Below, in pieces: positions 3,467-53,556 of a stretch of 64,000 nucleotides of DNA. Numbering within the stretch: the stretch's first letter is position 1; every line of letters starts with the position of its first letter. The stretch is from Candidatus Poriferisocius sp. (lineage in GTDB: Bacteria > Actinomycetota > Acidimicrobiia > Acidimicrobiales > Bin134), in contig NZ_OZ241836.1 of the NCBI RefSeq assembly GCF_965202595.1, positions 215,095 through 279,094 on the forward strand, given 5' to 3'. Both the position numbers and the translations under genes were made by a program. Under the pieces are notes generated by a model. The model was not told the origin of the DNA. It saw nothing but the letters and a program-made list of their open reading frames with translations, and ran no database searches.

Positions 3467-6400
3467 GTGATGGTTGACCGGTTTGGTTTCGGTTGGGTGG
3501 GGTTGCGCCGGTTTGGTGGGCCTCTGGTTGTTTTGGTGTTGTTGGGGTCGGTGTTGGTTTCGGTGGGGGGTGTGGTTGCGCAGGGGGGTGTGCCGGCGTA
3601 TCCGTTGTCGCCGAAGGTGGAGGTGTTGGGTGGTGGTCAGGTTCGGTTGTCGTGGGAATCACCGGGGTCGGGTGAGGTGCGTTATGAGTACATGTTTTCG
3701 CAATCGACTGATGCTGGGACCACGTGGGTTCCGCCGGTGGACAGGGTGGTGGATACTTCTACGGGGTTAGCGCCTGTTTCGGGGGATCGTAGTGGGGTTG
3801 TGTGGCGGCCGGTGCCCGGGGGTGGGGGTGCTCGGTCGGTGGTGGTGTCGGGTTTGACGGTTGGTAGCAGGTACCGGTTCTGGGTGCGGGCGGTGAACGC
3901 TGCGGGAGCGGGCAAAATTCGGGGTATTGGTCGGTCGGATGGGTATTTGATGTCTGGTGTTGCGCCGGTGCCGGCGGCTTTGCGGGCGGTTCCTGGGGAT
4001 TCCCAGGTGGAGTTGAAGTGGACCAAGGCTCGGGGTGAGGTGGTGGGGTCGGGGTTTGCTACTATTTTGCGGTACGAGTACGCGATCAAACAAGGTGATG
4101 GGGGTTGGTCGGCGTGGTCGCCGATACCGGATTTGATTTCGAACAATGCGGTTGTGGCGGCTGAGGATCGCGAGTCGTTCACGGTCACGGGTTTGACCAA
4201 CGATGTTGGGTATTCGTTCCGGGTGCGGGCGGTCAACAAGCATGGCAACGGTGCCACCGGTATGGTGGGGCCGGTGGTGGTAGCAGGCGTGCCGGGGGCT
4301 CCTCGTGGGTTTGTGGTGATGCCGGGGGATAAGTCGGCGTTGTTGTCGTGGCAGCCGCCGGGGGTGGTTGGCTCGCCGATAACGGGTTGGGAAGTCCGGT
4401 GGACGAGTTCGGGTTACAGCGATCTGGGTAGCGCGGCGTGGCAGAGGGTTCCTGGTGGGGCCGGGGCCAGGTCTTATTATGTGAGTGGTTTGGATAATAC
4501 CAAGAGTCATTTGTTTGAGGTGCGGGCTGTCAACGCGTTGGGTGGGGGTTTGGGGGCGCGTTCCGGGTTCGTGTATTTGGGTGCGCTGCTGGAGGTGCCT
4601 GGTGGGTTTAAGACGAGGAAGGTGATGGAGTCGTCGGTGACATTGGGGTGGGACCAGCCGGCTAATTTAGTTAGTGGTGGTGGTAGTGAGGGGTTTCGGC
4701 GTTATGAGTATTCGGTGTGGGCTGGTGATGGTGATTGGGGTGGTTGGGTGGCGATACCGGGTGACTACGCGACTAGTTCGTTCACGGTTCCGGGTTTGAT
4801 GGCGGGCACCGGGTACCGGTTCAGGTTGCGGGCGGTGAATAGTGTGGGTGCGGGTGCGGTGGCTGAGACGGGTGTTGTTTATCCGGGTACGGTGCCGCCG
4901 GCGCCGGCGGTGGTTGCGGAGGTGGTGTCGGATTACACTATAGGGTTGCATCAGGTGGTTTTGTCGTGGACGGGTTCCGATGGTGGTTCCCCGGTGACGA
5001 AGTGGCAGTTGAAACATGCGACAACGGTGGACGGGTTGACCAGCGCGTCGTGGCATGATTTGTGTGATAACACAGCGGGGGCGGATCCGACCTGTGGGGG
5101 GTTGTTGACGGTGACGCTGCCCAGGAATCGGACTTTTGATTACAAGAATGCAACTAGCTGTTTGGTTGTGTTGTGTGTGGGGAGTTTGAAGGTGGGGGAT
5201 CATTATTTCGTGTTGCGGGCGCAGAATGCCAGGGGTGTGGGTTTGGAGTCTGGGGTTGTGAGGGTGAATATCGCCAAGGGTGTTCCCTCTATGGCGACGA
5301 CGGCGGTTTTGAGGGGTTATACTGATGATCCCCGCACCAATGGTCGCCCTCACATGGGGGTAAGCTCTCCTGTGAGTTATCTTCATGGTGGTAAGCGTTT
5401 GCGGTTTGAGTATTCGTGGAAGGTCGGTGATGGGCCGTGGAGTGGATGGGCTACTCAACAGGGTAGCTTGAGTAGAGCTACCGAGACTTTCGATGAGGTC
5501 ACTTTCCGGGTTGGGGAGACTTACACGTTCAGGACCCGGACGGTGTCTGATTTGGGGGCGGGTTATGCGGTCGAGTCGGAACCGTTTGTGTTCGGGGCTC
5601 CGCCTTTGCCCGGTGCTGATGGTTGGACGGGTTTTGCTTTGACGCGTCCGGAAGTGTTGGCGGTGCCGGGTAATGGTCAGGTGAAGTTGAACATCGTCCG
5701 ACCCAAAGCGACGCTTGTAAGACGTGCTGATGGGTTTGTGGTTGGTTATGAGAATGCTTTCACCGATACCGATGGTACTTATGATGACACGGTTTGGGAG
5801 TATTCGTATCGTCCCGCCGGGGGTGAGTGGTCGCCGTGGGCGGTGTCCAATACGGGTCAAAGGTTCGCTGATCGGGCTGGGAACAGCGCCGATGTGGCTG
5901 GCGATGGGATCACGGTGTCGGGTTTGCGCAATGGGGTGGCTTATGAGTTCCGGGTTAGGGCGCTGAACCGGCACGGTACCGGTTGGTTGGTGGGTCCGGT
6001 GTTGTATTCCAACGGTGCCGGTTTGTACAACAAAGCCGGCGATGTTTACCCCGACAGGGTAGCCATACCAGGTGTGGCACCCCCCGCCCCCGCAGGGTTG
6101 ACGGCTGTTGGTGGTGATGGTCAGGTAACGCTGTCGTGGATGTCGGTGGGTTCGGGGGGTCCGCCGATCATCCGCTGGGAGTACATAAAACAGGAACGAA
6201 CCGCGGGTAGTACAACGTTCGGTGATTGGGATGGAAATTGGACTCCGGTTCCGGGTTCGGGGCCGTCTACGACTTCGGCGGTGATAAAGGGTTTGACCAA
6301 CGGCTCGACGTACCGGTTCCGCCTGCGGGCGGTGAACGCTTTGATGGCCTTCGACAGCGAGGGTGTTTTGGAGACTGTGACTACCTCTGTCAACAAGGGT

Positions 6401-7660
6401 GCGCAGGCGCAGTCGTTGCCGGTTACCCCTGGCAATACGCCCACTGCGCCTCGCCAGGTGCGGGTGGTGCCCGGTGATGGTGAGGTGAGGGTCTCTTTGT
6501 TGGCCCCGCAGAGTGGTTCTACGGTTTTGGGTTACGAGGTTCGGACGCGTCGCAGCGGTAGCAGCAGTTTTGATGCGTGGCAATCGCTGGGAGCTCGCAT
6601 CACCCCACCGGCCCGCCATTTGGCCGAATCAGTTGGTGTGCCGGTGCGGGGTTTGGTCAATGGGTTGGCCTATGACTTTGAGGTGCGGGCGGTGAACCAG
6701 TTCGGTGCCGGCCCCGCCGCAGGCGTGGTCGGCCCGGTAACACCAGTGGGCGCACCGACAGGCGGTTCGCTGCGAGCGGTTGCTGGTGATGGGCAGGTTT
6801 CGTTGTCGTGGGCTGCGGTGAACACGGGGGGTTCTGTGGTTACGGGTTGGCAGTACCGCATGAAAACCGATGGTGGGGGTTACGGTTCATGGACCGATGT
6901 CACCGGTGGAGCAGCAGCGCGCAGCCTGGTGGTGGATGGTTTGGGCAATGGGCGGGCCTATGCGTTTCAGGTGCGAGCCATAACCACCGATGTTCAGGTG
7001 ATTGGGGCGGCGTTCGAGTCCACCCCGGTCACCCCCTCAGCGGTGCCCCCCGCCCCCACAGTGAAAGCCACCGCTGCCAACACGATGCTTACTTTGAACT
7101 GGACCGCTGTTGATGGTGGGGCGGTGGGGGAGTCGTCGTGGGCTGCTGCGGTTACCGGGTGGCAGTACCGGATGAAAACCGGCACCGCTGGTTACGGGGC
7201 TTGGGTTGATGTGCCTGCCGCTACCACCACCCGCGACATCGATGGTCTCACCAACGGTGTTGCCTACACCTTTGAGGTCCGAGCGCTGAACAGGATTGGT
7301 GCTGGTACTGCCGTTACCGCCACGGCGACACCGGCGACGGTGCCTGATGCGCCGGCCGTTACCACCACGGCTGGTGACAAGACAGTGACAGTGAACTGGA
7401 CACCGGGTGGTGATGGGGGTTCTGTGGTGACGGGTTGGCAGTTGCGCACCGGCGATGCCGAGTGGGCCAACTACCCTGCGGGCACCACTTCGGTGCCGGT
7501 TCAGAATCTGACCAATGGCACTACCTACACCTTTCAGGTCAGAGCCCAAAACGATATGGGCAACGGTGCTGTTGGGGTTGCTACTGCAACCCCTGCTACC
7601 ACTCCCGCTGCACCCACGGTTACTACCATGCCTGGAGACGGCACCGTGACTTTGTCGTGA
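3467..7660 (+). CDS. Secreted multi-fibronectin-type-III repeat surface protein, N-terminal 1,397 codons, ending at an in-frame TGA
   Basis: N-terminal signal/anchor (LVVLVLLGSVLVSVGGVVAQG), then more than 12 repeats of roughly 90-100 aa with the pattern VxLxW...GGSPITGW.Y......W..V......Y.V.GL.NG..Y.F.VRA.N..G.G. Confidence 0.85.
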   Translation: MMVDRFGFGWVGLRRFGGPLVVLVLLGSVLVSVGGVVAQGGVPAYPLSPKVEVLGGGQVRLSWESPGSGEVRYEYMFSQSTDAGTTWVPPVDRVVDTSTGLAPVSGDRSGVVWRPVPGGGGARSVVVSGLTVGSRYRFWVRAVNAAGAGKIRGIGRSDGYLMSGVAPVPAALRAVPGDSQVELKWTKARGEVVGSGFATILRYEYAIKQGDGGWSAWSPIPDLISNNAVVAAEDRESFTVTGLTNDVGYSFRVRAVNKHGNGATGMVGPVVVAGVPGAPRGFVVMPGDKSALLSWQPPGVVGSPITGWEVRWTSSGYSDLGSAAWQRVPGGAGARSYYVSGLDNTKSHLFEVRAVNALGGGLGARSGFVYLGALLEVPGGFKTRKVMESSVTLGWDQPANLVSGGGSEGFRRYEYSVWAGDGDWGGWVAIPGDYATSSFTVPGLMAGTGYRFRLRAVNSVGAGAVAETGVVYPGTVPPAPAVVAEVVSDYTIGLHQVVLSWTGSDGGSPVTKWQLKHATTVDGLTSASWHDLCDNTAGADPTCGGLLTVTLPRNRTFDYKNATSCLVVLCVGSLKVGDHYFVLRAQNARGVGLESGVVRVNIAKGVPSMATTAVLRGYTDDPRTNGRPHMGVSSPVSYLHGGKRLRFEYSWKVGDGPWSGWATQQGSLSRATETFDEVTFRVGETYTFRTRTVSDLGAGYAVESEPFVFGAPPLPGADGWTGFALTRPEVLAVPGNGQVKLNIVRPKATLVRRADGFVVGYENAFTDTDGTYDDTVWEYSYRPAGGEWSPWAVSNTGQRFADRAGNSADVAGDGITVSGLRNGVAYEFRVRALNRHGTGWLVGPVLYSNGAGLYNKAGDVYPDRVAIPGVAPPAPAGLTAVGGDGQVTLSWMSVGSGGPPIIRWEYIKQERTAGSTTFGDWDGNWTPVPGSGPSTTSAVIKGLTNGSTYRFRLRAVNALMAFDSEGVLETVTTSVNKGAQAQSLPVTPGNTPTAPRQVRVVPGDGEVRVSLLAPQSGSTVLGYEVRTRRSGSSSFDAWQSLGARITPPARHLAESVGVPVRGLVNGLAYDFEVRAVNQFGAGPAAGVVGPVTPVGAPTGGSLRAVAGDGQVSLSWAAVNTGGSVVTGWQYRMKTDGGGYGSWTDVTGGAAARSLVVDGLGNGRAYAFQVRAITTDVQVIGAAFESTPVTPSAVPPAPTVKATAANTMLTLNWTAVDGGAVGESSWAAAVTGWQYRMKTGTAGYGAWVDVPAATTTRDIDGLTNGVAYTFEVRALNRIGAGTAVTATATPATVPDAPAVTTTAGDKTVTVNWTPGGDGGSVVTGWQLRTGDAEWANYPAGTTSVPVQNLTNGTTYTFQVRAQNDMGNGAVGVATATPATTPAAPTVTTMPGDGTVTLS

Positions 7661-11040: not shown

Positions 11041-11097
11041 CCTGGGTGGAAGACCGAAGCCTGGGTGGAAGGCTGAATCCTGGGTGGAAAACCGAAG
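11041..11097. repeat. 19-bp tandem repeat x3 in a convergent intergenic region
   Basis: cctgggtggaagaccgaag / cctgggtggaaggctgaat / cctgggtggaaaaccgaag. Confidence 0.85.
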
Positions 11098-11120
11098 CTA
11101 CCGGCCGGTAGGGCCGAGGC

Positions 11121-11908: not shown

Positions 11909-12002
11909 AGTAGGCCGCTTGGGACTCGAACAGGATGCCTTAGCGGTAGGCCGCTTGGGACTCGAGTGGAGCGCTTGAGAAGTAGGCCGCCTGGGACTCG
12001 AA
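11909..12002 (-). repeat. 36-bp tandem repeat: the 3' 22 nt of tRNA-Lys is present three times
   Basis: agtaggccgcttgggactcgaa at 11909, ggtaggccgcttgggactcgag at 11945, agtaggccgcctgggactcgaa at 11981. The last copy is the genuine T-arm/acceptor 3' half. Confidence 0.85.
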
Positions 12003-12055
12003 CCCAGCACCTTGAGATTAAAAGTCTCCTGCTCTACCTGATGAGCTAGCGGCCC
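11983..12055 (-). tRNA. tRNA-Lys (anticodon UUU)
   Basis: Manual cloverleaf on the minus strand: gggccgc ta gctc atcaggta gagc a ggaga cTTTTaa tctca aggtg ctggg ttcgagt cccag gcggcct a. It has GTTCGAGT in the T-loop, one mismatch at the base of the anticodon stem, and no encoded CCA. Confidence 0.85.
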
Positions 12056-13290: not shown

Positions 13291-14505
13291 ATGACCCGGC
13301 GGGTGGCGATCTTGTCCCTGCATACCTCCCCCCTGTCCCAACCCGGTGAGGGTGACAGCGGGGGCATGAACGTGTATGTCCGGGAGATGGCGGCGGCGCT
13401 GGCCCACTCCGGCAACGAGTGCCGGGTGTATGTGCGCCGCGGGCGCGGCGGCCAGGCCGATGAGGTGCCCATCGAGCCGGGGGTGACCGTGGTTCATGTG
13501 GACGCCGGGTCCCCCGATCTGGGCAAGGAGGAGCTTCACGAGGTGGTGGACCGGTTCGCCGATGGCGTGCTGGCCGATTTGCAGCGGCAGGGAGATCCCG
13601 ATGTGATCCATGCCAATTACTGGCTGTCCGGTGTGGCCGGTCACCGGATCAAGCACGCGCTGGAGGTACCTCTGGCCGTGACGTTCCACACGCTGGCCCG
13701 GGTGAAATCGGCTACCGGCGACGCTGAGTCCGAGCGCCGGGCCCGGGCCGAGACCGAGGTGATCGGTTGCGCCGATGTGGTTATAGCCTCCTGCGAGCCG
13801 GAGGCTCAGCAACTGCGGAGTTTCTACGACGCCCCGCCCGAGCGGATCGAACTGGCCGCCCCCGGAGTTGAGCATGCCCTGTTCTCGCCCGGTGATCGGG
13901 AGGGTGCTCGTAGAGCCCTCGGCCTGGGTAGCGGCCCGGTGCTGCTGTTCGTCGGCCGGATCCAGCCGCTGAAACGACCCCTTGTCGCGGTGGAGACCAT
14001 GGCCTGCCTGGCCCGTGAGGATGCTCGGCTGCTCATTGTGGGAGGCCCCAGCGGCCCGGAGGGCAACAACGAGTACCAGCGTCTGCGGGGCCGCATCCAG
14101 GCCCTGGGTTTGGAGGATCGGGTGACGTTGGTGCCCCCCTGCCCCCACCACTGGCTGTCCACTTACTACCGGGCCGCAGATGTAGTGCTGGTTCCCAGCC
14201 GGAGCGAGTCGTTCGGGTTGGTGGCTCTGGAGGCCGCGGCCTGCGGAACCCCGGTGGTGGCTGCCCCCGTCGGCGGCCTGCGCGCGGTGGTTGACGACGG
14301 TCGCACCGGTTTTCTCGTGGACGAGGCTGTGCCCGAAAACTTCGCCAACCGGGTGGCCGCGCTGGTGGACAACCCGCTGCTGGCGGCGGAGATGGCCATG
14401 AACGCGGCCGAGCGAGCCCGATCCTTCTCCTGGGCCGCCATGGCTCGGTCGTTGGGGGCCGTCTACCGAAGGGTCGAGTCCCGAGTACCCGTCTATTGCC
14501 AGTGA
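13291..14505 (+). CDS. mshA: D-inositol-3-phosphate glycosyltransferase (mycothiol biosynthesis), GT4
   Basis: The N-terminal VAILSLHTSPLSQPGEGDSGGMNVYV is the characteristic MshA signature. GT4 C-terminal motif: PSRSESFGLVALEAAACGTPVV. Confidence 0.8.
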   Translation: MTRRVAILSLHTSPLSQPGEGDSGGMNVYVREMAAALAHSGNECRVYVRRGRGGQADEVPIEPGVTVVHVDAGSPDLGKEELHEVVDRFADGVLADLQRQGDPDVIHANYWLSGVAGHRIKHALEVPLAVTFHTLARVKSATGDAESERRARAETEVIGCADVVIASCEPEAQQLRSFYDAPPERIELAAPGVEHALFSPGDREGARRALGLGSGPVLLFVGRIQPLKRPLVAVETMACLAREDARLLIVGGPSGPEGNNEYQRLRGRIQALGLEDRVTLVPPCPHHWLSTYYRAADVVLVPSRSESFGLVALEAAACGTPVVAAPVGGLRAVVDDGRTGFLVDEAVPENFANRVAALVDNPLLAAEMAMNAAERARSFSWAAMARSLGAVYRRVESRVPVYCQ

Positions 14506-14515
14506 TTTATTGCCA

Positions 14516-14648
14516 ATGACGCGGCCTGGTGGTGTTGATCTGTGGGGTTGTCGATGACGCGGCCTGGTGGTGTTGATGTGTGGGGTTGTCGATGACGCGG
14601 CCTGGTGGTGTTGATGTGTGGGGTTGTCGATGACGCGGCCTGGTGGTG
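14516..14648 (+). repeat. 38-bp tandem repeat (3 full units plus a partial one) encoding three ATGA-chained 13-codon mini-ORFs that lead into the next gene
   Basis: Mini-ORFs at 14516-14557, 14554-14595 and 14592-14633 (MTRPGGVD[L/V]WGCR*). Each stop overlaps the next ATG. The last ATG, at 14630, starts the downstream gene (MTRPGGDTGG...). Confidence 0.9.
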
Positions 14649-16104: not shown

Positions 16105-16249
16105 TCCTTGGGGCACTTGTGTCCTTGGGGCATTTGTGGAGGCGGGGGTGGATATTGATATTTGGGGTATTTGAGGGGACTGGGTGGCACCCGGTCGGCC
16201 ACTCGGCATAAGGTGATCGCCCTACCGCGGAGTTGAGGGGTATTTTGGT

Positions 16250-16501: not shown

Positions 16502-17389
16502 TTGATACCGCCTCGGGGCACTGGCGCAGCCTTGCGCTACGACACCGTCTCGTTCTTGTCCGATTACGGGCTGGGTGATGAATTCGTCGGGGTGGTGAAG
16601 TCGGTCATCCGGTCTCTGGCTCCCGAGGTGGTGGTGGTGGACATCACCCATGACATTGCTCCTCACGATGTCAGGGCCGGGGGCCTGGCCCTGGCTCGCA
16701 GCGCCCAGTACCTGGTACCCGGGGTGGTGCTGGCCGTGGTCGATCCCGGAGTGGGGGGCAAGCGGCGGGCCGTGGCGGTGGAAGTGGGAGGCGGAACCTC
16801 GGTGCTGGTCGGCCCCGACAACGGCCTGCTGGCCCCGGCGGTGGCCATGGTCGGGGGAGCGACCCGAGTGGTGGAGCTGACCGCCGAGAAATACCACCTT
16901 CGCTCTCCCGGCCCTACATTCGCGGGCCGCGACGTGTTCGCTCCGGTGGCCGCCCACCTGTGTTCGGGGGTCGGGCTCGAAGACGTGGGCACGCCGATCC
17001 CTATGCACTCCCTGACTCCGGGAGTCGTGCCGGTGAGCCGTACCGGCGGCGACCGGATCGATGCCGAGGTGCTTTGGATCGATCGATTCGGGAACTTGCA
17101 GCTCAACCTCGACCCCTCCGACATCGACCCTATGGGTGATGTGCTGAGGATCACCGCGGGCGGTGTGGGTCGCAACGCCCGCCGGGTCAACTGCTTCAGC
17201 GATGTGAGCACTGGTGATCTGGGGATACTGGTAGACTCCTACGGGTTGGCGGCCGTTGCGGTCAACCGAGGTTCGGCAGCGATGGAGTTGAACTGCAAGG
17301 AGGGTGACTCCATCATCGTCGAATCGGGGGAGTCCGCTTTGGCCACCCCGGTGCAACTTCAACCCAGACCCCCGGAGGTGCCGGCATGA
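16502..17389 (+). CDS. SAM hydroxide adenosyltransferase / SAM hydrolase family (DUF62)
   Basis: VSFLSDYGLGDEFVGVVKSVI, PGVVLAVVDPGVG, LVGPDNGLL and IDRFGNL match the fluorinase/chlorinase-like family. Confidence 0.75.
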   Translation: MIPPRGTGAALRYDTVSFLSDYGLGDEFVGVVKSVIRSLAPEVVVVDITHDIAPHDVRAGGLALARSAQYLVPGVVLAVVDPGVGGKRRAVAVEVGGGTSVLVGPDNGLLAPAVAMVGGATRVVELTAEKYHLRSPGPTFAGRDVFAPVAAHLCSGVGLEDVGTPIPMHSLTPGVVPVSRTGGDRIDAEVLWIDRFGNLQLNLDPSDIDPMGDVLRITAGGVGRNARRVNCFSDVSTGDLGILVDSYGLAAVAVNRGSAAMELNCKEGDSIIVESGESALATPVQLQPRPPEVPA

Positions 17390-17484
17390 GACCGGGAACC
17401 ACCATCGCTATCGCCGTGCCATGAGACCGGGAACCACCATCGTCATCGCCGTGCCATGAGACCGGGAACCACCATCGTCATCGC
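17386..17484 (+). repeat. 35-bp tandem repeat (2 units plus a partial one) encoding two ATGA-chained 12-codon mini-ORFs
   Basis: Mini-ORFs 17386-17424 (MRPGTTIAIAVP*) and 17421-17459 (MRPGTTIVIAVP*). The first ATG overlaps the upstream gene's stop (ATGA at 17386-17389). The last stop overlaps ATG 17456. Confidence 0.9.
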
Positions 17485-17545
17485 TGTTTTGCTGCTGGCC
17501 ATCCTGGTGGCGGCGGCGGTCCAATTGTTCGTGCTGGCTCGCTGA
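17456..17545 (+). CDS. 29-aa hydrophobic micro-protein
   Basis: MRPGTTIVIAVLLLAILVAAAVQLFVLAR*: a single predicted TM helix. It is the terminal member of the repeat chain and too short for the ORF track. Confidence 0.4.
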   Translation: MRPGTTIVIAVLLLAILVAAAVQLFVLAR

Positions 17546-18204: not shown

Positions 18205-19455
18205 GTGTCAGTACTTGCCATAGGCCTCAACCATCGAACAGCGCCCCTCGGCCTGCTGGAGCAGATGACCATTGACGAGTCCCACCAACCCAAGGCGCTG
18301 ACCGACCTGATGGGGAGGGAGAACATATCCGAGGCGGTTGTGCTCTCCACCTGCAACCGCATCGAGGTTTACGCTTTTGCCGAGACCTTTCACGGGGCGT
18401 TCCAGAATGTGCGGGACTTTTTGTCCGAGACCGCTCATGTGCCCCCTGAGCGGTTCAGCGATGCTCTCTACGTCCACTACGAGGCCGATGCCGTGTCGCA
18501 CCTGTTCGCGGTGACCAGCGGTTTGGATTCCGCGGTACTGGGCGAGCATGAGATTCAGGGTCAGGTGAGGAACGCATGGGAGGCAGCCCGGCTGGAGGGC
18601 ACCTGCGGCACCACTCTGAATGCCCTGTTCCGTCATGCGGTGGAGGTTGGTAAGCGGGCCCGCTCCGAGACCGGCATCTCCCATCACATCACCTCGGTGT
18701 CCCACGCGGCCGTGGCTCTGGCCGGCGAGCGGCTGGGCGGGTTGGTCGGCCGTCGCATGATGGTGCTGGGAGCCGGGGACATGGGCGGGGGAATGGCCGC
18801 CGGCCTGGCCAACAGTGGGGTTGGAGAGGTTGTGGTGGCCAACCGCACCGCCGACCGGGCCGCGGAGCTGGCCCGCCGGGTGGGAGGCCGGTCGGTGGGT
18901 CTCGACGAGTTGGCCGCCGAGCTGGTGGCAGTGGATGTGCTTTTGACCTCCACCGGTGCGTCCTCGATGATTCTGGAGCACTGTGATGTGGCCGGGATCA
19001 TGGCCCGGCGGGGACACCGCCCGCTGCTGATCGTGGATGTGGCCGTACCCCGGGACGTGGATCCGACCGCGGGCAACCTGGACGGGGTAACCCTGCTGGA
19101 CATGGACGACCTGCGGGCCTTCGCCGACCGGGGCCTTCAGGAGCGTCGGGCCGAATCGGAACGGGTGCGAAACATCATCGGCCACGAGGTGAACCGCTAC
19201 ATGGATTACAGCTCGGCTCGGGAGGCGGCCCCCCTGGTAGCCGCGCTCCGGTCCCGGGCCGAGATCCTGCGCCGGGAGGAGCTGGATCGTCATGGCGGCG
19301 GGTTGTCGCCGGCCGAGCGGGAAGCAGCCGAGGCCGCCACCAGAAGGGTGGTGAACAAACTCCTGCACGAGCCCACCGTCAGGCTCAAGCAGGCTGCGGG
19401 GTCGCCGCGAGGTGATCGGTTGGCCGAAGCCCTACGGGATCTTTTCGATCTCTGA
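18205..19455 (+). CDS. hemA: Glutamyl-tRNA reductase
   Basis: GLNHRTAPL, STCNRIEVY and VLGAGDMG motifs. The start is set at GTG 18205, just after the upstream stop; the maximal ORF begins at 18145. Confidence 0.9.
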   Translation: MSVLAIGLNHRTAPLGLLEQMTIDESHQPKALTDLMGRENISEAVVLSTCNRIEVYAFAETFHGAFQNVRDFLSETAHVPPERFSDALYVHYEADAVSHLFAVTSGLDSAVLGEHEIQGQVRNAWEAARLEGTCGTTLNALFRHAVEVGKRARSETGISHHITSVSHAAVALAGERLGGLVGRRMMVLGAGDMGGGMAAGLANSGVGEVVVANRTADRAAELARRVGGRSVGLDELAAELVAVDVLLTSTGASSMILEHCDVAGIMARRGHRPLLIVDVAVPRDVDPTAGNLDGVTLLDMDDLRAFADRGLQERRAESERVRNIIGHEVNRYMDYSSAREAAPLVAALRSRAEILRREELDRHGGGLSPAEREAAEAATRRVVNKLLHEPTVRLKQAAGSPRGDRLAEALRDLFDL

Positions 19456-19459
19456 TCCA

Positions 19460-20434
19460 ATGCTGCGCGCCGCCACCCGAGGCAGCGCCTTGGCCCGCTG
19501 GCAAGCAGCCCACGTAGCCGATCTGCTGGGCGATGCCATCGACGTTCAACTGCTTGTTGTGACCACAACCGGCGACCGGCGAGCCGGCGAGCCCATATCG
19601 TCCATCGGCGGCAAGGGGGTGTTCGTCAAGGAGGTGCAGGCCGCGGTGCTGGACGGGCGGGCCGACCTGGCCGTCCACTCGGCCAAGGACCTGCCCGCCA
19701 CCACCCCCGATGGTCTGGTGGTGGCTGCGGTGCCCCCCCGGGCCGATCCTCGGGACGCGCTGGTGGGCAGCCGGTTGGACGACCTTCCCCCCAAAGGGTT
19801 GGTGGCCACCGGCTCGGCCCGCCGCCGGGTTCAGCTCCGCCGGCTCCGCCCCGATCTGCGGTTCGCCGAGTTGCGGGGCAACATTGACACCCGGCTGGCC
19901 AAGGTGCCCGACTACCACGCAGTGATCATGGCCAAAGCCGCCCTGGACCGGCTGGGCGAGCATCCGAGCGTTGTGGCGGCGCTGGGTCGGCGGGGCGAGC
20001 AACCGAGCGTTGTGGCCGCCCTGGAGCGGCTGGGCGAGCAACCGAACGTTGTGGATGTGTTGGGTCGGCGGCGCGAGCAGCCGGCCATCGTGGATGTGTT
20101 GGACTGCGAGGTTATGGTTCCTCAGGTGGGTCAAGGGGCCCTGGCGGTGGAGTGCCGGGAGGGCGATGATCGGGTCCGCTCCCTTCTGGCCGCCATCGAG
20201 GATCCAATGGCCCGGCGAGCGGTGGACGCCGAGCGGGCCTTTCTGTCCACCCTGGGCGGTGATTGCACCTTGCCCGCGGGAGCCCACGCCCGGATACTCG
20301 ACAACCGGGTGGTGATGCGGGCCGTGCTGGCCGGCGGTGTGGACGGCCGCTGCCACACCATGGTTGACGAGGGCAGCGACGGTGAATCCCTGGGCCAAGA
20401 CTTGGCCCGCCGGTTGCTTGCCGCGGCCCGATGA
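19460..20434 (+). CDS. hemC: Hydroxymethylbilane synthase (porphobilinogen deaminase) with a 39-bp x4 in-frame insertion
   Basis: LRAATRGSALARWQA, GKGVFVKE, RGNIDTRL and PQVGQGALAVECR motifs. ATG 19460 is preferred over the maximal ORF start at 19412. Confidence 0.9.
   Translation: MLRAATRGSALARWQAAHVADLLGDAIDVQLLVVTTTGDRRAGEPISSIGGKGVFVKEVQAAVLDGRADLAVHSAKDLPATTPDGLVVAAVPPRADPRDALVGSRLDDLPPKGLVATGSARRRVQLRRLRPDLRFAELRGNIDTRLAKVPDYHAVIMAKAALDRLGEHPSVVAALGRRGEQPSVVAALERLGEQPNVVDVLGRRREQPAIVDVLDCEVMVPQVGQGALAVECREGDDRVRSLLAAIEDPMARRAVDAERAFLSTLGGDCTLPAGAHARILDNRVVMRAVLAGGVDGRCHTMVDEGSDGESLGQDLARRLLAAAR
19955..20110 (+). repeat. In-frame 39-bp (13-aa) tandem repeat x4 inside hemC
   Basis: ggcgagca[t/a]ccgagcgttgtgg at 19955, 19994 and 20033, with a degenerate copy at 20072. 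Protein: GEHPSVVAALGRR GEQPSVVAALERL GEQPNVVDVLGRR REQPAIVDVLD. Confidence 0.9.
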
Positions 20435-20662
20435 CCGTTTATCCACGATGGCAGGGTTGATGGGCATGGCGTTGAACACTCGCCGGTTGCTTGCTGCGGC
20501 CCGATGACCGTTTATCCACGATGGCAGGGTTGATGGGCATGGCGTTGAACACTCGCCGGTTGCTTGCTGCGGCCCGATGACCGTTTATCCACGATGGCAG
20601 GGTTGATGGGCATGGCGTTGAACACCCGCCGGTTGCTTGCTGCGGCCCGATGACCGTTTACC
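20408..20662 (+). repeat. 73-bp tandem repeat (3 units plus a partial one) of the hemC-stop/cobA-start junction, encoding six chained mini-ORFs
   Basis: cgccggttgcttgc at 20408, 20481, 20554 and 20627. Mini-ORFs: 20431-20460, 20460-20507, 20504-20533, 20533-20580, 20577-20606, 20606-20653. They alternate between 9 aa (MTVYPRWQG) and 15 aa (MGMALNTRRLLAAAR), linked by ATGA and TGATG overlaps. Confidence 0.9.
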
Positions 20663-22170
20663 TGGTTGGTGCCGGGCCGGGCGATCCCGACCTTTTGACC
20701 CTGAGGGGGGCCGAGGTGTTGGCCGGTGCCGATGTGGTTGTGTACGACCGGCTCTCGGCCCCCTCGCTGCTGGATTTGGTTCCCGATGGGGCCGAGCGCG
20801 TATCAGTGGGCAAAACCCCCGGCGGTCCCCGCACTTCGCAGGAGGACATCAACGCCCTGTTGGTGGATCGGGGCCGAGCCGGCCGGCAAGTGGTGCGGCT
20901 CAAGGGGGGCGACCCTTTCGTGTTTGCTCGCGGTGGCGAGGAGGCCGCGGCGCTGGCTGCCGCGGGGGTTGCCTTTGAGATCGTGCCCGGTGTTACTGCC
21001 GCGGTGGCCGTTCCCGCCTATGCCGGGATCCCCGTGACCATGCGCTACTCCTCCACCTCCCTAACCGTGGTTACCGGTCACGAGGATCCGGCCAAGGGTG
21101 ATGTGTCGGGTGATGGGGAGGATCCGGCCAAAAGCGATGTGTCGGGTGATGGGGAGGACCTGGCCAAAAATGATGGGTCGGTCAATTGGGAAGCGGTGGC
21201 TGCTTTGGGGGGCACGGTTGTGGTGCTCATGGGGGCGGCTCGCTGCCGCGCCATCTGCGATCGGCTCATAGCGGCGGGCTTGGCCGCCGACACCCCGGCG
21301 GCTGCCGTTCAGTGGGGCACTCGCCCGGACCAGCGCACGCTACGAGCCACGGTGGGGACTCTGGCCGGTTTGAGCCCCGAACCGCCGAGCACCATTGTGA
21401 TCGGCGAGGTGGCAGCGGTGGATCTGGCCTGGTTCGAGAACCGGCCGCTGTTCGGGCGGCGCATCGTGGTGACCCGAGCCCAACCTCGGGCCTCGGCCCT
21501 GGCCGCTGAGCTGCGGCGGCGGGGAGCGGAAACCGTGGAGTTGCCGACCATCGCCTTCGAACCTCCCGACGACCTCGACCTCATGGCCCGGGCCGCGGCT
21601 CAGGTCGGTGGCTACGACTGGGTTGTGTTCACCTCGCCCACCGGGGTGGCCCGGTTCCTGGAGCAGCTTCGAGATGCTCGCGACCTGGGCGGGGTGCAGG
21701 TGGCAGCCATCGGGCCGGGGACGGCGGCCGCGCTGGCCGAGCGCAACGTCATTGCCGATCTGGTTCCGGGCCGGTTCGTGGCCGAGGCTCTGCTGGAGGC
21801 CATGCCCCGCGGGCCGGGACGGGTGCTCATCCCCCGAGCCGAGACCGCCCGCGACGTGCTGCCCGAGGGTTTGGCCGCCGCGGGTTGGGATGTGGATGTG
21901 GTTCCCGTGTACCGCACGGTGGCCCCGCCCCCCGATCCCACCGCCCCCGCCCGGCTGGCCGGGGCCGAGGTCATCACCTTCACCTCGTCCTCCACGGTGA
22001 CCAACTTCGTGGATATCCACGGCACCGGCGGGGTGCCCCCGGTGGTGGCCACCATTGGGCCGATTACCACCGCCACTGCCCGCAACCGGGGCCTGGAGGT
22101 AGCAGTGGAGGCCACCGAGCACACCATCGCCGGTTTGGTGGCCGCTCTGGAGGATTTCTTCACCCGCTGA
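20650..22170 (+). CDS. Fused uroporphyrinogen-III C-methyltransferase / uroporphyrinogen-III synthase
   Basis: N-terminal VYLVGAGPGDPDLLTLRG...VVRLKGGDPFVF (CobA/SUMT). The C-terminal half from about residue 270 is HemD-like (RIVVTR...VVFTSPTGV...ITFTSSSTV). Contains an in-frame 36-bp x2.8 repeat at 21082-21180. Confidence 0.9.
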   Translation: MTVYLVGAGPGDPDLLTLRGAEVLAGADVVVYDRLSAPSLLDLVPDGAERVSVGKTPGGPRTSQEDINALLVDRGRAGRQVVRLKGGDPFVFARGGEEAAALAAAGVAFEIVPGVTAAVAVPAYAGIPVTMRYSSTSLTVVTGHEDPAKGDVSGDGEDPAKSDVSGDGEDLAKNDGSVNWEAVAALGGTVVVLMGAARCRAICDRLIAAGLAADTPAAAVQWGTRPDQRTLRATVGTLAGLSPEPPSTIVIGEVAAVDLAWFENRPLFGRRIVVTRAQPRASALAAELRRRGAETVELPTIAFEPPDDLDLMARAAAQVGGYDWVVFTSPTGVARFLEQLRDARDLGGVQVAAIGPGTAAALAERNVIADLVPGRFVAEALLEAMPRGPGRVLIPRAETARDVLPEGLAAAGWDVDVVPVYRTVAPPPDPTAPARLAGAEVITFTSSSTVTNFVDIHGTGGVPPVVATIGPITTATARNRGLEVAVEATEHTIAGLVAALEDFFTR

Positions 22171-23587: not shown

Positions 23588-24789
23588 ATGTACTCGGCTG
23601 TTTTGGGGTTGTCGGGATCCATGAGGTTGGCCATGATGCGCAGGGCCCACTCCATGATCGGCCGGGATTGCATGCCGATCCGGGTTAGTTCCCGCAGCAG
23701 CGCCGGTTTGCCGATGAGCCGGGCAAACAGGCGGGCCACCCGAAAGTAATCCCCGTAGCATTCGTCCAGCAGGTTCGGGTACCGCCAGATCACCCCGCCG
23801 TCACCGGTGGCCAGGGCCTCGGCCACCAGATCGGCGGCCATCCGACCCGTCTCGTAGGCGTAGTCGATGCCCTCACCGTTGAACGGGTTGACCGACCCGG
23901 CCGCGTCCCCCACCACCAGGTGGTTGGGCCCCACCTTGGGGTTGACCGACCCGGCCATGGGCAGGCGCCCCCCCACCGGGTCCATCAGCGGCCGGTTGGG
24001 GTCGATCTCCCAGTGGGCGGGCAGGGTGGCCGCGAACTCCCGCATCAAGTGGGAGGTGTTGACCGAGGTGTAGTCACGAAACGTGGACAGCAGACCCACG
24101 CCCACGTTCACGCTCCCGTCGCCCACGGGGAAGATCCAGCCGTATCCCGGCAGTGAATTGCCGTTGCGGTCCCGCACATCCAGGGCGCTCTCGATCCAGG
24201 GGGTGTCGTGGAGCGGGCTCTCGAAGTATGTGCGGATGGCCATGCCCTGGGGGTAGGTCCGGTCCCGGGCCGTTCCCAGGGCCCGGCCGAACCGGGAGTT
24301 GGCCCCGTCGGCGACCACCACATAGCGGGCCCGTACCCGGTCGGTGCCGCCCGTTATGGTGTTCTTCACCTCGACCCCGTCCAGCAGCCCGTTGACCAGC
24401 AGCGGTCGGGTGGCTTCAACCCCGAGCCGGAGTTCGGCCCCCCCGGCTACCGCGTGGTCGGCCACCAGTTGGTCGAGCTCCCGCCTCCGCACCACATAGC
24501 CGTAGTCGGGGAATACCGGGTGGCGGGGCCAGGCCAATTCCATGGTCCGGCCATGGGCCACCGCCCGCAAACCCCGGTAACGGTGGTAGCGGATCATCCG
24601 GTGACCCAAACCCATGTCGTTCAGCGCCTTTACCGCCCGGGGGGTGAGTCCATCGCCGCACGTTTTGTCACGGGGGAACTGCTTGCGCTCCACCACCACC
24701 ACGTCCAGCCCGTGCCGGGCCGCCCAGTAGGCCGTGGCGGCTCCGGCCGGGCCACCGCCGACGACCAGAAGGTCGCGGGAAGTGGTCAG
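23545..24789 (-). CDS. Geranylgeranyl reductase family FAD-dependent oxidoreductase
   Basis: DLLVVGGGPAGAATAYWAARHG dinucleotide fold, RDKTCGDGLTPRA and GDAAGSVNPFNGEGI. No ATG or GTG lies near the fold. The start is inferred as CTG 24789, overlapping a TGA. The maximal ORF (to 24915) would overlap the upstream gene by about 100 nt. Confidence 0.75.
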   Translation of the reverse strand: MTTSRDLLVVGGGPAGAATAYWAARHGLDVVVVERKQFPRDKTCGDGLTPRAVKALNDMGLGHRMIRYHRYRGLRAVAHGRTMELAWPRHPVFPDYGYVVRRRELDQLVADHAVAGGAELRLGVEATRPLLVNGLLDGVEVKNTITGGTDRVRARYVVVADGANSRFGRALGTARDRTYPQGMAIRTYFESPLHDTPWIESALDVRDRNGNSLPGYGWIFPVGDGSVNVGVGLLSTFRDYTSVNTSHLMREFAATLPAHWEIDPNRPLMDPVGGRLPMAGSVNPKVGPNHLVVGDAAGSVNPFNGEGIDYAYETGRMAADLVAEALATGDGGVIWRYPNLLDECYGDYFRVARLFARLIGKPALLRELTRIGMQSRPIMEWALRIMANLMDPDNPKTAEYIYKAAAKASTVASK

Positions 24790-24829
24790 TTCTCCCCCAG
24801 AAGGTCGCGGGAAGTGGTCAGTTCTCCCC
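24765..24829 (-). repeat. 32-bp tandem duplication of the cytochrome-c-stop / reductase-start junction
   Basis: ccagaaggtcgcgggaagtggtcagttctccc at 24765 and 24797. On the minus strand this gives an 11-codon ORF (CTG 24821 to TGA 24786: LTTSRDLLGEN*) between the two genes. Confidence 0.8.
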
Positions 24830-25603: not shown

Positions 25604-25678
25604 CGCTCCTCCGGTGTGCCTCCCGGCCGGCAGATCAGCCGACCCGGTGACACATTAGGCCCGCCCGGTGCCGGCGGC

Positions 25679-25753
25679 CCAACTATTCATCCCCCAAGTA
25701 TTCATCCCTCAAGTATTCATCCCCCAAGTATTCATCCCCCAACTATTCATGGC
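25679..25753. repeat. 15-bp direct repeat x5 (iteron-like) in the divergent control region of the respiratory cluster
   Basis: ccaactattcatccc, ccaagtattcatccc, tcaagtattcatccc, ccaagtattcatccc, ccaactattcatggc. Confidence 0.85.
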
Positions 25754-28624: not shown

Positions 28625-29497
28625 TTGCCCGTGGGTATTGCACTCTCCATCGCCATACCGATCATCGTGGTGGCCGCCGCGATCATGCTGGTGGCCGCGG
28701 CCCGCCGCCGGGAGACCATGGCCGCCGAGGGGCACCTGAACCGGGAGACCCGCCGCCGGGATCGCGGCCGGGTGGCCGTCGACGGCGAACCCGTTGCCGG
28801 CCCCACCGGCCGGGAGGTGGAGAGGGCCGCGGTGGTGGCTCGCCAATCCGCCGGCACCGAGGTGGTGGAGGCGGTGGATGCGTCGGTCGAGGAGTGGACC
28901 CCGCCCCATCCCGAGATGGTCGGGGTGAGCCGCCGCCAGTTCCTGAATCGCAGCACGGTGGCCATGATGGGTTTTGGCCTCAGTGGTTTCGGTGCCGCTT
29001 GCATAGCCTTCTTGTGGCCGCCGTTCGTCACCGGTTTCGGTGCCGACGTGAACGTGGGCCTGGTGGACGATGTGAAGTCCCGCATCAAGGATGAGAACGG
29101 TTTCCTTTATATTCCCGAGGGTCGCGCCTGGGTGACGGAGTACCCGCAAGCCGCCTTGCAGAAGGCGCAGAACGTGTACAGCGCTCCGGAGTTGGCGGGG
29201 ATCGAGTCCGGGCTGATTGCCTTGTTCCAGAAGTGCCCCCATCTGGGGTGCCGGGTGCCGTCGTGTTTGACCTCGCAGTGGTTCGAGTGCCCGTGCCACG
29301 GATCCCGCTACAACCAGGTGGGCGAGAAGCGGGGTGGGCCCGCTCCCCGGGGCATGGACAGGTTCGCCATGTCGGTCAACTCCAAGGGGGAGTTCATCAT
29401 CCGCACCGGCACCATTATCCAGGGGCCCCCCATCGGGGTGAACACCACCGGCCAGGAGCCCGAGGGGCCGAGCTGTCTTGGGGGAGCATCGCACTGA
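28625..29497 (+). CDS. Rieske [2Fe-2S] subunit
   Basis: CPHLGC and CPCHGS boxes. Confidence 0.85.
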   Translation: MPVGIALSIAIPIIVVAAAIMLVAAARRRETMAAEGHLNRETRRRDRGRVAVDGEPVAGPTGREVERAAVVARQSAGTEVVEAVDASVEEWTPPHPEMVGVSRRQFLNRSTVAMMGFGLSGFGAACIAFLWPPFVTGFGADVNVGLVDDVKSRIKDENGFLYIPEGRAWVTEYPQAALQKAQNVYSAPELAGIESGLIALFQKCPHLGCRVPSCLTSQWFECPCHGSRYNQVGEKRGGPAPRGMDRFAMSVNSKGEFIIRTGTIIQGPPIGVNTTGQEPEGPSCLGGASH

Positions 29498-29573
29498 TGT
29501 TCGAGTATCCCCGCCGATTCGATGCTCCAACCTGGTGGGGGCCGAGCTGTCTTGGGGGAGCATCGCACTGATG
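29466..29573 (+). repeat. 74-bp duplication of the Rieske-stop / cytochrome-c-start junction, encoding one 24-codon bridging mini-ORF
   Basis: ggccgagctgtcttgggggagcatcgcactgatg at 29466 and 29540. Mini-ORF 29497-29571 (MFEYPRRFDAPTWWGPSCLGGASH*). TGATG overlaps at both ends. Confidence 0.9.
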
Positions 29574-30917: not shown

Positions 30918-30994
30918 GCAAGCATGGGAGAATTGTTCAGCTTCATTCCGGCCCCGTACCTGGCTTACGAGTGGGGGTTGTAGGCAAGCATGGG
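30896..30994 (+). repeat. 66-bp duplication of the cytochrome-c-stop / next-gene-start junction with a 19-codon mini-ORF
   Basis: ggcttacgag.gggggttgtaggcaagcatggg at 30896 and 30962. Mini-ORF 30924-30983 (MGELFSFIPAPYLAYEWGL*). The 6-nt stop-to-ATG spacing is preserved in both copies. Confidence 0.85.
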
Positions 30995-32126
30995 CTCGGT
31001 TATTTCCTTGCTGGTTGCACCCGCAGCCATCTCGTTCGACAACGAGGTGCGCGGCCTGCTGGTGGTGTTGCTGGGCTCGGCCATCCTCATGGGATCGGTG
31101 TGGCTCATCGTGTCCACCAACACCGGCTTTCGCCTGGGGTCCCTCATCGCCATATCGGCCATATTCGGGTGGACGGCCATCATGTCGTTGATCTGGGCCC
31201 TCTACGGCATCGGCCTCCAGGGAGCCCGCCCCACCTGGGAGGTCCAGGCCATCCATATCGGCAACCCATCGGTGACGGCCAATGAGGCCAACCCCCCTCC
31301 CGGGATTCTGGATGACCTGCCCAACCCGGTGACCTGCGACCGGCTCGGCGATCAGGACTGCCTGCCCCGGGCCATCGAAATCGTCAGGACCCTGGGTAGC
31401 AGCGAGGTGCGGGCCGAGTTGGACTCCATTGATGGTGAGACCATCAGGGCCGAGGTCTCCGCATTCCACGCCGCTCTGGCCGGCAACGACTCCCGCAAGC
31501 TCACCGGGGCCGAACTCGAGGCCGACATCGAGCGCCTGATCGACCAGCAGCGCATCCGCAACGAGGATCTGACCCTGAGCGAGTTGAAGGGCATCGCTCC
31601 CGGGTTGATCGACGAGGCCCAGAGCCGAGGCTGGCTGGAGCTGGGCGACTGGAATCTGGAGGCCACCCAGGCCGCCGGGGAGGCCATAACCGAGGCCGGC
31701 GACTACCTGACCCAGGCCGATCTGGGATTCGGGCCCACCGATGACCAGAGCAACAGCTTCGTGGTGCTGGATGCCTTCCAGCAGGGTGGCAAACCTCCAC
31801 GGCTGAGCGATGGGGTTTGGGAGCGGGTCAGCAACAAGGTGATCACCAGCGCCATGCCCCGCCATCCCACCAACTACACGGTGGTGCAGGTGCAGCGGTC
31901 GCTGTACAAGCCGACCGTGGCTGGCCAGGCCCCTCCCCCCGTCGAGGTGGATACCGGCGAGCCGGTCATCTCGGTGCTTTTACGCCGCAACCTGGGCCGT
32001 TTCCGCCTACCCGGCATTTTGGTGGCCATAGGTTCCGGGTTGCTGTTTTTGGCATCCCTGCTGATGCTCCACACCCGCGACCTGGAGGTTCGCCGCCGCT
32101 TGGAGGGCGGGAGCGCGGCCCCGTGA
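30990..32126 (+). CDS. Membrane protein of unknown function (last gene before nuoA)
   Basis: 378-aa ORF with N-terminal TM helices, a large soluble domain and a C-terminal TM helix. Confidence 0.5.
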   Translation: MGSVISLLVAPAAISFDNEVRGLLVVLLGSAILMGSVWLIVSTNTGFRLGSLIAISAIFGWTAIMSLIWALYGIGLQGARPTWEVQAIHIGNPSVTANEANPPPGILDDLPNPVTCDRLGDQDCLPRAIEIVRTLGSSEVRAELDSIDGETIRAEVSAFHAALAGNDSRKLTGAELEADIERLIDQQRIRNEDLTLSELKGIAPGLIDEAQSRGWLELGDWNLEATQAAGEAITEAGDYLTQADLGFGPTDDQSNSFVVLDAFQQGGKPPRLSDGVWERVSNKVITSAMPRHPTNYTVVQVQRSLYKPTVAGQAPPPVEVDTGEPVISVLLRRNLGRFRLPGILVAIGSGLLFLASLLMLHTRDLEVRRRLEGGSAAP

Positions 32127-32146
32127 TCGACCGGGGGTAGATCGCG

Positions 32147-39790: not shown

Positions 39791-39840
39791 CGGCTGACCC
39801 GGCTGCGGTGGTTACCGATGTGAGGATCCGGACCCGATGA
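39746..39840 (+). repeat. 50-bp duplication of the nuoG/nuoH junction with a 17-codon bridging mini-ORF
   Basis: gacccggc.gcggtggttaccgatgtgaggat.c.gacccgatga at 39746 and 39796. Mini-ORF 39787-39840 (MTADPAAVVTDVRIRTR*). ATGA overlaps at both ends. Confidence 0.9.
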
Positions 39841-41063: not shown

Positions 41064-41130
41064 TGGGATACCTTGAGTTCACCCGATGGTGGCTGGATCC
41101 CCAAGGTGGTTTTGCCTGATGGGATACCTT
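41039..41130 (+). repeat. 56-bp duplication of the nuoH/nuoI junction with an 18-codon bridging mini-ORF
   Basis: ggatccccaaggtggttttgcctgatgggatacctt at 41039 and 41095. Mini-ORF 41063-41119 (MGYLEFTRWWLDPQGGFA*). TGATG overlaps at both ends. Confidence 0.9.
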
Positions 41131-41775: not shown

Positions 41776-41818
41776 TGGAGACAGCGGTTCGCAAAGCCCA
41801 TGGCGGGGGTCACCACTG

Positions 41819-42356: not shown

Positions 42357-42370
<14 letters not shown>

Positions 42371-42461
42371 TGGTCACCGCATTCTGGTATGTCCGTTGCC
42401 GGCCACCGCGGGGGCTGCGACCGGCCCCCGGTGAAGACTGATGGTCACCGCATCCTGGTAT
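42357..42461 (+). repeat. 71-bp duplication of the nuoJ/nuoK junction with a 23-codon bridging mini-ORF
   Basis: ccggtgaagactgatggtcaccgcat.ctggtat at 42357 and 42428. Mini-ORF 42370-42441 (MVTAFWYVRCRPPRGLRPAPGED*). Confidence 0.9.
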
Positions 42462-42743: not shown

Positions 42744-42843
42744 TGGGTACATGAGCATGCTCGTGGATGCTGAAGGGTTAGTGGGTACATGAGCACCCTC
42801 GTGGATGCTGAAGGGTTAGTGGGTACATGAGCACGCTCGTGGA
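42732..42843 (+). repeat. 38-bp tandem repeat x3 of the nuoK/nuoL junction with two chained 13-codon mini-ORFs
   Basis: ctgaagggttagtgggtacatgagca..ctcgtggat at 42732, 42770 and 42808. Mini-ORFs 42751-42792 (MSMLVDAEGLVGT*) and 42789-42830 (MSTLVDAEGLVGT*), ATGA-chained to the nuoL ATG at 42827. Confidence 0.9.
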
Positions 42844-53555: not shown

Positions 53556-53556
53556 A

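Follow-up and report, generated by a model that had tools for sequence, protein, structure and literature searches.

The window analysed here is a 64,000-nucleotide (64-kb) stretch of the genome of Candidatus Poriferisocius sp. (Acidimicrobiia; contig NZ_OZ241836.1, positions 215,095 to 279,094 of the forward strand), and our subject is a short tandem repeat that lies where hemC meets a cobA-hemD fusion gene, with hemA upstream and hemL downstream of the pair. The repeat had been singled out in a preliminary description made from the same DNA. It carries a series of very small open reading frames (ORFs), which we call relay ORFs. Gene identities were taken from Pfam; a crude gene caller based on the guanine-plus-cytosine (GC) content of third codon positions picked up antisense ORFs and was hence unreliable. 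The junction holds the following features, the repeat units being those found by Tandem Repeats Finder (TRF), with the full ones also taken from a listing of the units.

19412-20434, forward strand: hemC (hydroxymethylbilane synthase; Pfam PF01379, Porphobil_deam, and PF03900, Porphobil_deamC)
20408-20480, 20481-20553 and 20554-20626, forward strand: the three full repeat units
20627-20660, forward strand: partial fourth unit
20431-20460, forward strand: relay ORF 1a, MTVYPRWQG and stop, its ATG overlapping the hemC TGA (ATGA)
20457-20507 (ATG form 20460-20507), forward strand: relay ORF 1b, (L)MGMALNTRRLLAAAR and stop, ending in ATGA
20504-20533, forward strand: relay ORF 2a, MTVYPRWQG and stop
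20530-20580 (ATG form 20533-20580), forward strand: relay ORF 2b, (L)MGMALNTRRLLAAAR and stop
20577-20606, forward strand: relay ORF 3a, MTVYPRWQG and stop
20603-20653 (ATG form 20606-20653), forward strand: relay ORF 3b, (L)MGMALNTRRLLAAAR and stop, its TGA overlapping the cobA ATG
20650-22170, forward strand: cobA-hemD fusion (uroporphyrinogen-III C-methyltransferase and uroporphyrinogen-III synthase; Pfam PF00590, TP_methylase, and PF02602, HEM4)

The repeat as a whole (20408-20660, forward strand; TRF score 492) consists of 3.5 copies of a 73-bp unit with 98% matches and zero indels, and its three full units differ from one another by 1-2 nt. Every unit is made of a 34-nt core, namely the last 23 nt of hemC, ATGA and the following 7 nt of cobA, and of a 39-nt filler. 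The mini-ORFs, alternately of 9 and of 15/16 amino acids, form a gap-free chain from the hemC stop codon (TGA at 20432-20434, overlapping the first relay ATG) to the true ATG of cobA-hemD. We place this start at 20650 because position 1 of the TP_methylase profile aligns to residue 2 of CobA (profile positions 1-211 against residues 2-238). Each of the seven joints between hemC and cobA is an overlap of 4 or 1 nt, and successive starts lie 26 or 47 nt apart, in either case 2 mod 3. An in-frame TTG stands one codon 5' of the ATG in every 15-aa ORF (in relay ORF 1b, the overlap with the TGA before it is -4 from the TTG at 20457 and -1 from the ATG at 20460), so that all seven joints can also be read as -4 overlaps of the form NTGA (ATGA or TTGA). 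The preliminary description had the three units, their small differences and the unbroken chain right, as TRF, the unit listing and the ORF coordinates all bear out. It had also remarked that the 9-aa ORF starts like CobA and that the 15-aa ORF ends like HemC; the likeness is there, and arises simply because the unit copies the junction.

Signals other than the overlaps themselves were looked for in the array. No Shine-Dalgarno (SD)-like motif was found in the 22 nt upstream of the cobA ATG or before any relay start, neither a promoter nor a terminator was predicted within the array, its RNA folds no better than shuffled sequences (z = +1.6 for the minimum free energy), and it has no Rfam match at E <= 1. 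A structured RNA element such as a riboswitch, an attenuator or a repetitive extragenic palindromic (REP)-like sequence was accordingly rejected on the fold and the lack of an Rfam family. An array of clustered regularly interspaced short palindromic repeats (CRISPR) was rejected as well, given that the "spacers" are identical to one another and that the array sits inside an operon. Of 14 gene pairs with -4 and -1 overlaps tested in published work, 13 were strictly coupled (PMC6728339). It is because SD motifs, structure, promoter and terminator are all absent, and because overlaps of these two kinds are strictly coupled in the literature, that we infer translational coupling at this junction. 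A ribosome leaving hemC would go through seven rounds of termination and reinitiation, all at -4 (or -1) overlaps, before arriving at the cobA-hemD ATG, each 73-bp unit being read as two throw-away relay ORFs whose peptides would themselves be without function.

A simple frame rule governs whether a duplication of this kind leaves such a chain intact. When a tandem duplication spans a stop and the next start, the hybrid ORF terminates at the duplicated stop only when period and start-minus-stop offset agree mod 3, a condition with a prior of 1/3 for a fresh duplication; for -4 and -1 overlaps it demands a period of 2 mod 3. We counted only junction arrays that TRF had detected, blind to frame, in the window and in a related genome (the sister genome, described below), and 14 of 15 obey the rule (P of about 2e-6 under a null of 1/3 each). 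The sole exception is the hemC-cobA array itself (73 = 1 mod 3), in which an internal TTGATG stop/start rescues the chain. At one further junction with a +6 spacing the unit is 66 nt long (0 mod 3), and its sister counterpart combines a +2 spacing with a 65-nt unit; 66 nt at +6 against 65 nt at +2 implies that the constraint is on reaching the stop and not on one fixed number.

For the hemC-cobA array taken by itself, chance does rather well. When the core was left as it is and the filler shuffled, the chain stayed unbroken in about 9% of trials; fillers of random length gave such a chain in 17% (43% at periods of 2 mod 3, 7% at 1 mod 3 and less than 1% at 0 mod 3). The single array is thus only mildly improbable, and the significance rests on the full set of junction arrays. 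The earlier claim that open, chained frames are no accident therefore gains its support from the set, 14 of 15 of which obey the rule, and not from this array taken singly; the companion claim that a duplication with an unrelated filler would "rarely" keep the chain needs correcting, about 8% for this geometry being not vanishingly small.

The arrays that make up the set are widespread in the window, on which TRF returned 41 rows, or about 27 distinct arrays. Intragenic arrays have periods divisible by 3. Ten arrays have periods that are not, and two of these are non-coding and eight span a gene start. In each of the eight TRF junction arrays the chain runs on to the start of the downstream gene, every joint being a -4 or -1 overlap and every start-to-start step 2 mod 3, apart from a 10-nt spacer between the upstream stop and the first relay start at the lnt junction. 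A more sensitive scan, in which a short ORF had to be chained between two coding-like ORFs and to match the end of a flanking gene at 10 or more of 12 nt, added older, diverged single units at 29494, 41060, 41772, 42367 and 44719; following the ORFs from upstream stops confirmed these five and added one at 30924. Without the end-match requirement the scan was unspecific in GC-rich DNA (about 7 chained short ORFs per 100 kb even in distant relatives) and gave antisense mirror matches at 60505 (+) and 41812 (-). Altogether, locus-specific stop/start duplications occupy at least 14 same-strand junctions of the window, and relay units are present at over a third of co-oriented junctions. At each, the hybrid mini-ORF joins the N-terminus of the downstream gene to the C-terminus of the upstream gene and terminates on the duplicated stop. 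What had been noted at hemC-cobA is a lineage-wide property of operon junctions and not special to that one. Besides the hemC-cobA array, the window holds the following.

14502-14648, forward strand: GT4 to ybjN, 38-bp unit x3.5, three 13-aa relay ORFs, ybjN ATG at 14630
17385-17484, forward strand: SAM_HAT (SAM-hydroxide adenosyltransferase) to a 29-aa membrane ORF, 35-bp unit x2.9, two 12-aa relay ORFs
24765-24829, reverse strand: cytochrome c to FAD-dependent reductase, 32-bp unit x2.0, CTGA joints
29494-29571, forward strand: diverged single relay unit of 74 nt, its mini-ORF ending GPSCLGGASH and stop like the upstream gene
30924-30992, forward strand: relay unit of 66 nt at the +6 spacing (30917/30924), found by following ORFs
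39746-39853, forward strand: nuoG to nuoH, 50-bp unit x2.2, 17-aa relay ORF
41060-41118, forward strand: nuoH to nuoI, diverged relay unit of 56 nt, mini-ORF MGYLEFTRWWLDPQGGFA and stop
41772-41818, forward strand: nuoI to nuoJ, relay unit of 44 nt, mini-ORF METAVRKAHGGGHH and stop
42367-42440, forward strand: nuoJ to nuoK, relay unit of 71 nt
42732-42844, forward strand: nuoK to nuoL, 38-bp unit x3.0, two 13-aa relay ORFs
44719-44792, forward strand: nuoL to nuoM, relay unit of 71 nt, its mini-ORF ending LAWFLSRAGL and stop like NuoL
60493-60648, reverse strand: GT4 to methyltransferase, 68-bp unit x2.3, two relay ORFs joined by GTGA
63454-63523, reverse strand: upstream of lnt, 17/34-bp array, relay ORFs of 4-6 aa, ATGA joints and then GTGA at 63456

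The array between GT4 and ybjN is preceded by a GTGA-joined 5-aa ORF (a 14-nt duplication), and the same junction is a bare ATGA in the sister genome. Non-coding spacers of the window carry a 19-bp array at 11041-11098 and a 17-bp array at 16105-16138, and TRF lists further tandem arrays of 36 bp at 11909-12003 and of 15 bp at 25678-25750.

The sister genome, represented by two loci (L161 and L162, 42 kb in all; HemC 76% and NuoH 93% identical to the window), is as rich in repeats as the window and has at least 10 junctions with stop/start duplications. Its hemC-cobA junction carries one 71-nt unit, a 24-aa ORF with ATGA at either end. A 47-bp array in 4 copies with TTGA joints lies at the start of SAM_HAT and 44/38-bp units lie at the 29-aa ORF junction (both in L161); seven junctions in and adjoining the nuo operon carry units of 65, 71, 53, 68, 65, 62 (x2) and 59 nt, and there are diverged units at nuoA-nuoB and nuoH-nuoI. 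The sister arrays that TRF detected at junctions (47 and 44/38 bp in L161; 65, 53, 68, 62 and 59 bp in L162) are all 2 mod 3 and chained, and the units at hemC-cobA and at the seven nuo-region junctions are chained throughout. The public cobA-hemD call of this genome (L161 10860-12428, 522 aa) begins 53 nt inside hemC, apparently because the relay unit misled the gene caller. Duplicate-signature relays reach 19.8 per 100 kb when the window and sister genome are taken together; other Poriferisocius-like genomes have 3.4 and other Acidimicrobiia 0.4.

Across 18 relatives, the hemC-cobA junction is a bare ATGA or GTGA in eight and holds one chained unit (35, 44, 62, 68 or 71 nt) in ten, and in none of the 18 is the chain broken. 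The prediction that relatives would show an ancestral single ATGA does not hold uniformly, since ten have one chained mini-ORF. Several of these relay units clearly represent independent events. An independent parallel is also found in a soil metagenome contig of the Acidimicrobiia (L143, 53% HemC identity), in which a 32-bp array in 4 copies at positions 1400-1520 encodes mini-ORFs VTVYLVGAGPA (each with its stop) with GTGA joints at the same junction. These comparisons bear on whether the repeat could have been falsely expanded by sequencing or assembly. Tandem repeats can indeed be mis-assembled, and the species is represented by one assembly; against this, independent assemblies of other species hold units at the same junctions that differ in sequence and length, the arrays are short enough to fit within long reads, the units bear point differences, and an artefact would not follow a reading-frame rule. 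We regard an artefact as extremely improbable.

Six relatives share a 35-nt unit at hemC-cobA, and this unit separates what is conserved from what is not. Its divergence (0.66-0.77) matches that of flanking third codon positions (0.64-0.79), and it retains its exact length and both NTGA joints. A unit that drifts like synonymous sites and still holds its length and joints indicates that the frame is conserved and the peptide is not. Being open and well positioned for translation, the mini-ORFs might be supposed to yield functional micropeptides, such as regulators of tetrapyrrole enzymes. However, there is no peptide conservation between lineages outside the parts copied from flanking genes, and the identical architecture recurs at unrelated junctions with unrelated peptides, which leaves the idea hardly credible. 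The window unit gave no convincing alignment by eye with the 35-nt unit. In the relatives (L004, L006, L008, L009, L011 and L012, at about 4900-4945), the slightly better-conserved middle of the 35-nt unit contains a palindrome or near-palindrome of 10-12 nt, (C)AAGCCGGCTT(G).

Based on these results, we consider it likely that the arrays are minisatellite-like duplications of operon junctions, locally derived and filtered by selection for unbroken termination-reinitiation. The Candidatus Poriferisocius lineage, as represented by the window and the sister genome, would generate short tandem duplications at an unusually high rate, and those that span a junction would be purged whenever the hybrid mini-ORF misses the duplicated stop; duplications that keep the hand-over would be nearly neutral. 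Downstream genes would depend on ribosomes passed on from the upstream cistron, and a broken relay would be deleterious. At hemC-cobA, the overlap of the hemC stop and the cobA start would have been amplified in tandem from local sequence, without a mobile element. The 29-aa ORF junction illustrates local derivation: the first sister unit (44 nt) is purely native sequence, later sister units are 6 nt shorter, the window units are 9 nt shorter, and the deletions are all multiples of 3. For the 73-bp unit, one possible history, tentatively suggested by length, begins with an old single unit of about 71 nt, like that of the sister genome, which would have drifted with a net gain of 2 nt, the internal TTGATG preserving the chain, before a recent amplification to three copies. 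A duplicate of 30 nt of cobA and 41 nt of hemC makes 71 nt, the exact length of the sister unit.

Several observations weigh against parts of this interpretation. The filler is no closer to a virtual 71-nt duplicate of the native flanks than shuffled sequence is (243 of 2000 shuffles score as well in global alignment), nor to the sister unit (416 of 2000); the likeness to the flanks is marginal in the sister genome (43 of 2000 shuffles) and absent in the window. Since these similarities are not significant, the history of an old duplication that drifted is unproven, and drift alone does not account for an identical 34-nt core beside a diverged filler. Random 39-nt stretches of the window, used as fillers, keep the chain in about 8% of cases. 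The array is known from a single genome of the species, and copy-number polymorphism within the species has not been seen: exact look-up of HemC, CobA and the public 324-aa HemC returned no second genome, a scan of metagenome proteins returned nothing above 70% identity, and relatives other than the identical public protein have at most 76% HemC identity. That ribosomes are relayed along the array is, moreover, read from its sequence. Finally, junction arrays account for 15 of about 50 TRF arrays in the 106 kb of both genomes. Junctions make up only about 2% of the available target, and they admit one period in three; by a rough estimate, junction duplications thus exceed what a neutral-plus-filter model and the non-coding arrays would give by about 10-fold. 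This excess hints at a mutational hotspot or at positive selection outside the model.

One reading of such an excess would be that the arrays act as an adaptive translational rheostat. If ribosomes were lost at each stop-restart, the number of units would set the ratio of CobA-HemD to HemC and thereby the flux to sirohaem and B12 as against haem. The units, being 98-100% identical, are prone to expand and contract; unit number at hemC-cobA varies between species (0, 1 or 3); junction duplications are seemingly over-represented compared with non-coding arrays; and relay units occupy many junctions of the nuo operon, whose products are stoichiometric. Yet the sequence gives no sign that the coupling efficiency per step would fall below 1 here, the units drift as neutral DNA does, and functionally unrelated junctions are affected indiscriminately. 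We consider a rheostat doubtful, and it would in any case be compatible with filtered local duplication as an added layer. In a broader form, which we think unlikely at present, junction duplication itself would be favoured and relay mini-cistrons would be a general, evolvable layer of operon design in this symbiont lineage. The 3' end of the upstream gene would then no longer have to double as the region in which its neighbour is initiated, or alternatively the units would serve as copy-number-variable rheostats of subunit stoichiometry; either would account for relay units at more than a third of co-oriented junctions and for their over-representation.

Returning to filtered local duplication, the closest known analogue of these arrays is the mycobacterial interspersed repetitive unit (MIRU). 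MIRUs are found in M. leprae and in the M. tuberculosis complex, and the senX3-regX3 intergenic region of M. tuberculosis, which has promoter activity, contains three 77-bp units in H37Rv and two 77-bp units plus one 53-bp unit in CDC1551 (PMC4213456). By our own arithmetic, 77 and 53 are both 2 mod 3, the same frame rule as here. MIRU ORFs show -4 nt coupling to the genes on either side, and insertion of a unit barely affects the downstream gene (PMC12548453, citing Supply 1997). Both systems consist of tandem units of 40-100 bp between co-oriented operon genes (here 73 bp x3.5), each unit having a small ORF that shares a -4 nt overlap with the adjoining stop at one end and the adjoining start at the other (here ATGA/TTGA); the copy number of MIRUs varies between strains and that of the present units between species. 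Unlike the units described here, each of which derives from its own junction, MIRUs form a dispersed family with a consensus and are thought to be mobile. They are reported only from mycobacteria, whereas the present array belongs to sponge-associated Acidimicrobiia, in which the units are far denser (at least 14 junctions in 64 kb) and no promoter is predicted. Membership of the MIRU family was rejected, both on the lack of a dispersed-family consensus in the 64 kb and the fetched loci and on the taxon.

A related proposal is that a MIRU-type mobile element inserted at the cobA start codon, the 34-nt core being its target duplication. The a-b-a-b-a layout with a filler of unplaced origin would suit such an event, and insertion of MIRUs at start codons with -4 coupling has been reported (PMC12548453). 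The filler has no second occurrence in the 64-kb window, no reverse-complement or distant source for it was found there, and an exact scan of metagenome contigs did not find it. Filler and unit are thus single-locus in the window, the units of the 8-9 junction arrays compared (9 over the 64 kb and the fetched loci) have only chance matches of 6-8 nt in common, and some arrays are plainly made of native flanks, such as the 44-nt sister unit at the 29-aa ORF and the 50-bp unit between nuoG and nuoH. An inserted element is accordingly very improbable.

Filtered local duplication can also be set beside other coupled arrangements. As in overlapping gene pairs (ATGA/TGATG), every joint here is ATGA, TTGA, GTGA or TGATG and cobA lacks an SD motif; known cases link two real genes, while here up to six mini-cistrons would lie in between and seven reinitiations would be needed. 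Delivery ORFs, as in bicistronic designs and in the coupled upstream ORFs of mycobacteria, likewise use a short ORF to hand the ribosome to the next start (PMC12548453; PMC11260477), but they are single, usually conserved or engineered, and located at the 5' end of a transcript, whereas relay ORFs are internal, repeated and derived from duplication. The arrays share with variable number tandem repeats (VNTRs) and minisatellites their head-to-tail, near-identical units longer than 9 bp (98% matches here) and the in-frame periods inside genes; they differ in that the junction class makes up so large a share and obeys the frame rule. To our knowledge, no frame rule at gene junctions has been described for generic VNTRs.

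The flanking genes have features of their own. The longest ORF of hemC starts with GTG at 19412 and the public annotation with ATG at 19460 (324 aa), and the protein is 100% identical to the public [quoted passage not shown]. An in-frame 39-bp repeat (19937-20083, x3.8, 13-aa unit, about 79% matches) lies within hemC, and HemC is longer here (324-340 aa) than in the sister genome (303 aa) or in most relatives (286 aa). Within cobA, a 36-bp in-frame repeat (21082-21181, x2.8) encodes the 12-aa unit EDPAKGDVSGDG inside the stretch matched by TP_methylase.

Elsewhere in the window, the hydrophobic 29-aa ORF at 17456-17545, MRPGTTIVIAVLLLAILVAAAVQLFVLAR, lies between the SAM_HAT gene and a sirohaem-synthase-like gene; with 72-90% identity across the 17 relatives examined, it probably encodes a genuine small membrane protein. 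In both genomes, the FAD-dependent reductase (window 24789-24821, reverse strand; L161 at about 15165) has no ATG, GTG or TTG between the upstream stop and its GxGxxG motif, and the conserved CTGA suggests a CTG start or some other non-canonical initiation. The gene that precedes nuoA ends in a GTGA/ATGA overlap with a 5-aa ORF, (V/M)IDRG with its stop (window 32123-32140; L162 2331-2348), and 6 nt separate this small ORF from nuoA; the ORF is conserved in both genomes, with no obvious duplication. A 1397-aa ORF at 3467-7660 contains at least 8 fibronectin type III (fn3) domains, and a 1751-aa fn3 protein adjoins the nuo operon of the sister genome (L162, 18268 onward). Three islands of low GC content (0.44-0.51) at 47954-50272, 52836-54396 and 57258-58031 carry restriction-modification genes (an N6_Mtase with an S domain, 772 aa; an N6_N4_Mtase beside a TdeIII-type endonuclease; a lone Methylase_S) and were probably acquired horizontally.

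In conclusion, a coupled-repeat architecture like that of MIRUs can come from local duplication without a mobile element, which bears on how MIRUs themselves are interpreted. Gene callers mishandle relay junctions, as the sister cobA call illustrates. The arrays, with 0-6 interposed mini-cistrons, are ready-made constructs with which the reinitiation efficiency per step could be determined. The two related genomes hold dozens of junction duplications of independent origin, which amount to a natural, replicated experiment on translational coupling. A strict filter on frame combined with freely drifting sequence provides population-genetic evidence, from an uncultured actinobacterial lineage, that unbroken termination-reinitiation matters for downstream genes that lack an SD motif.

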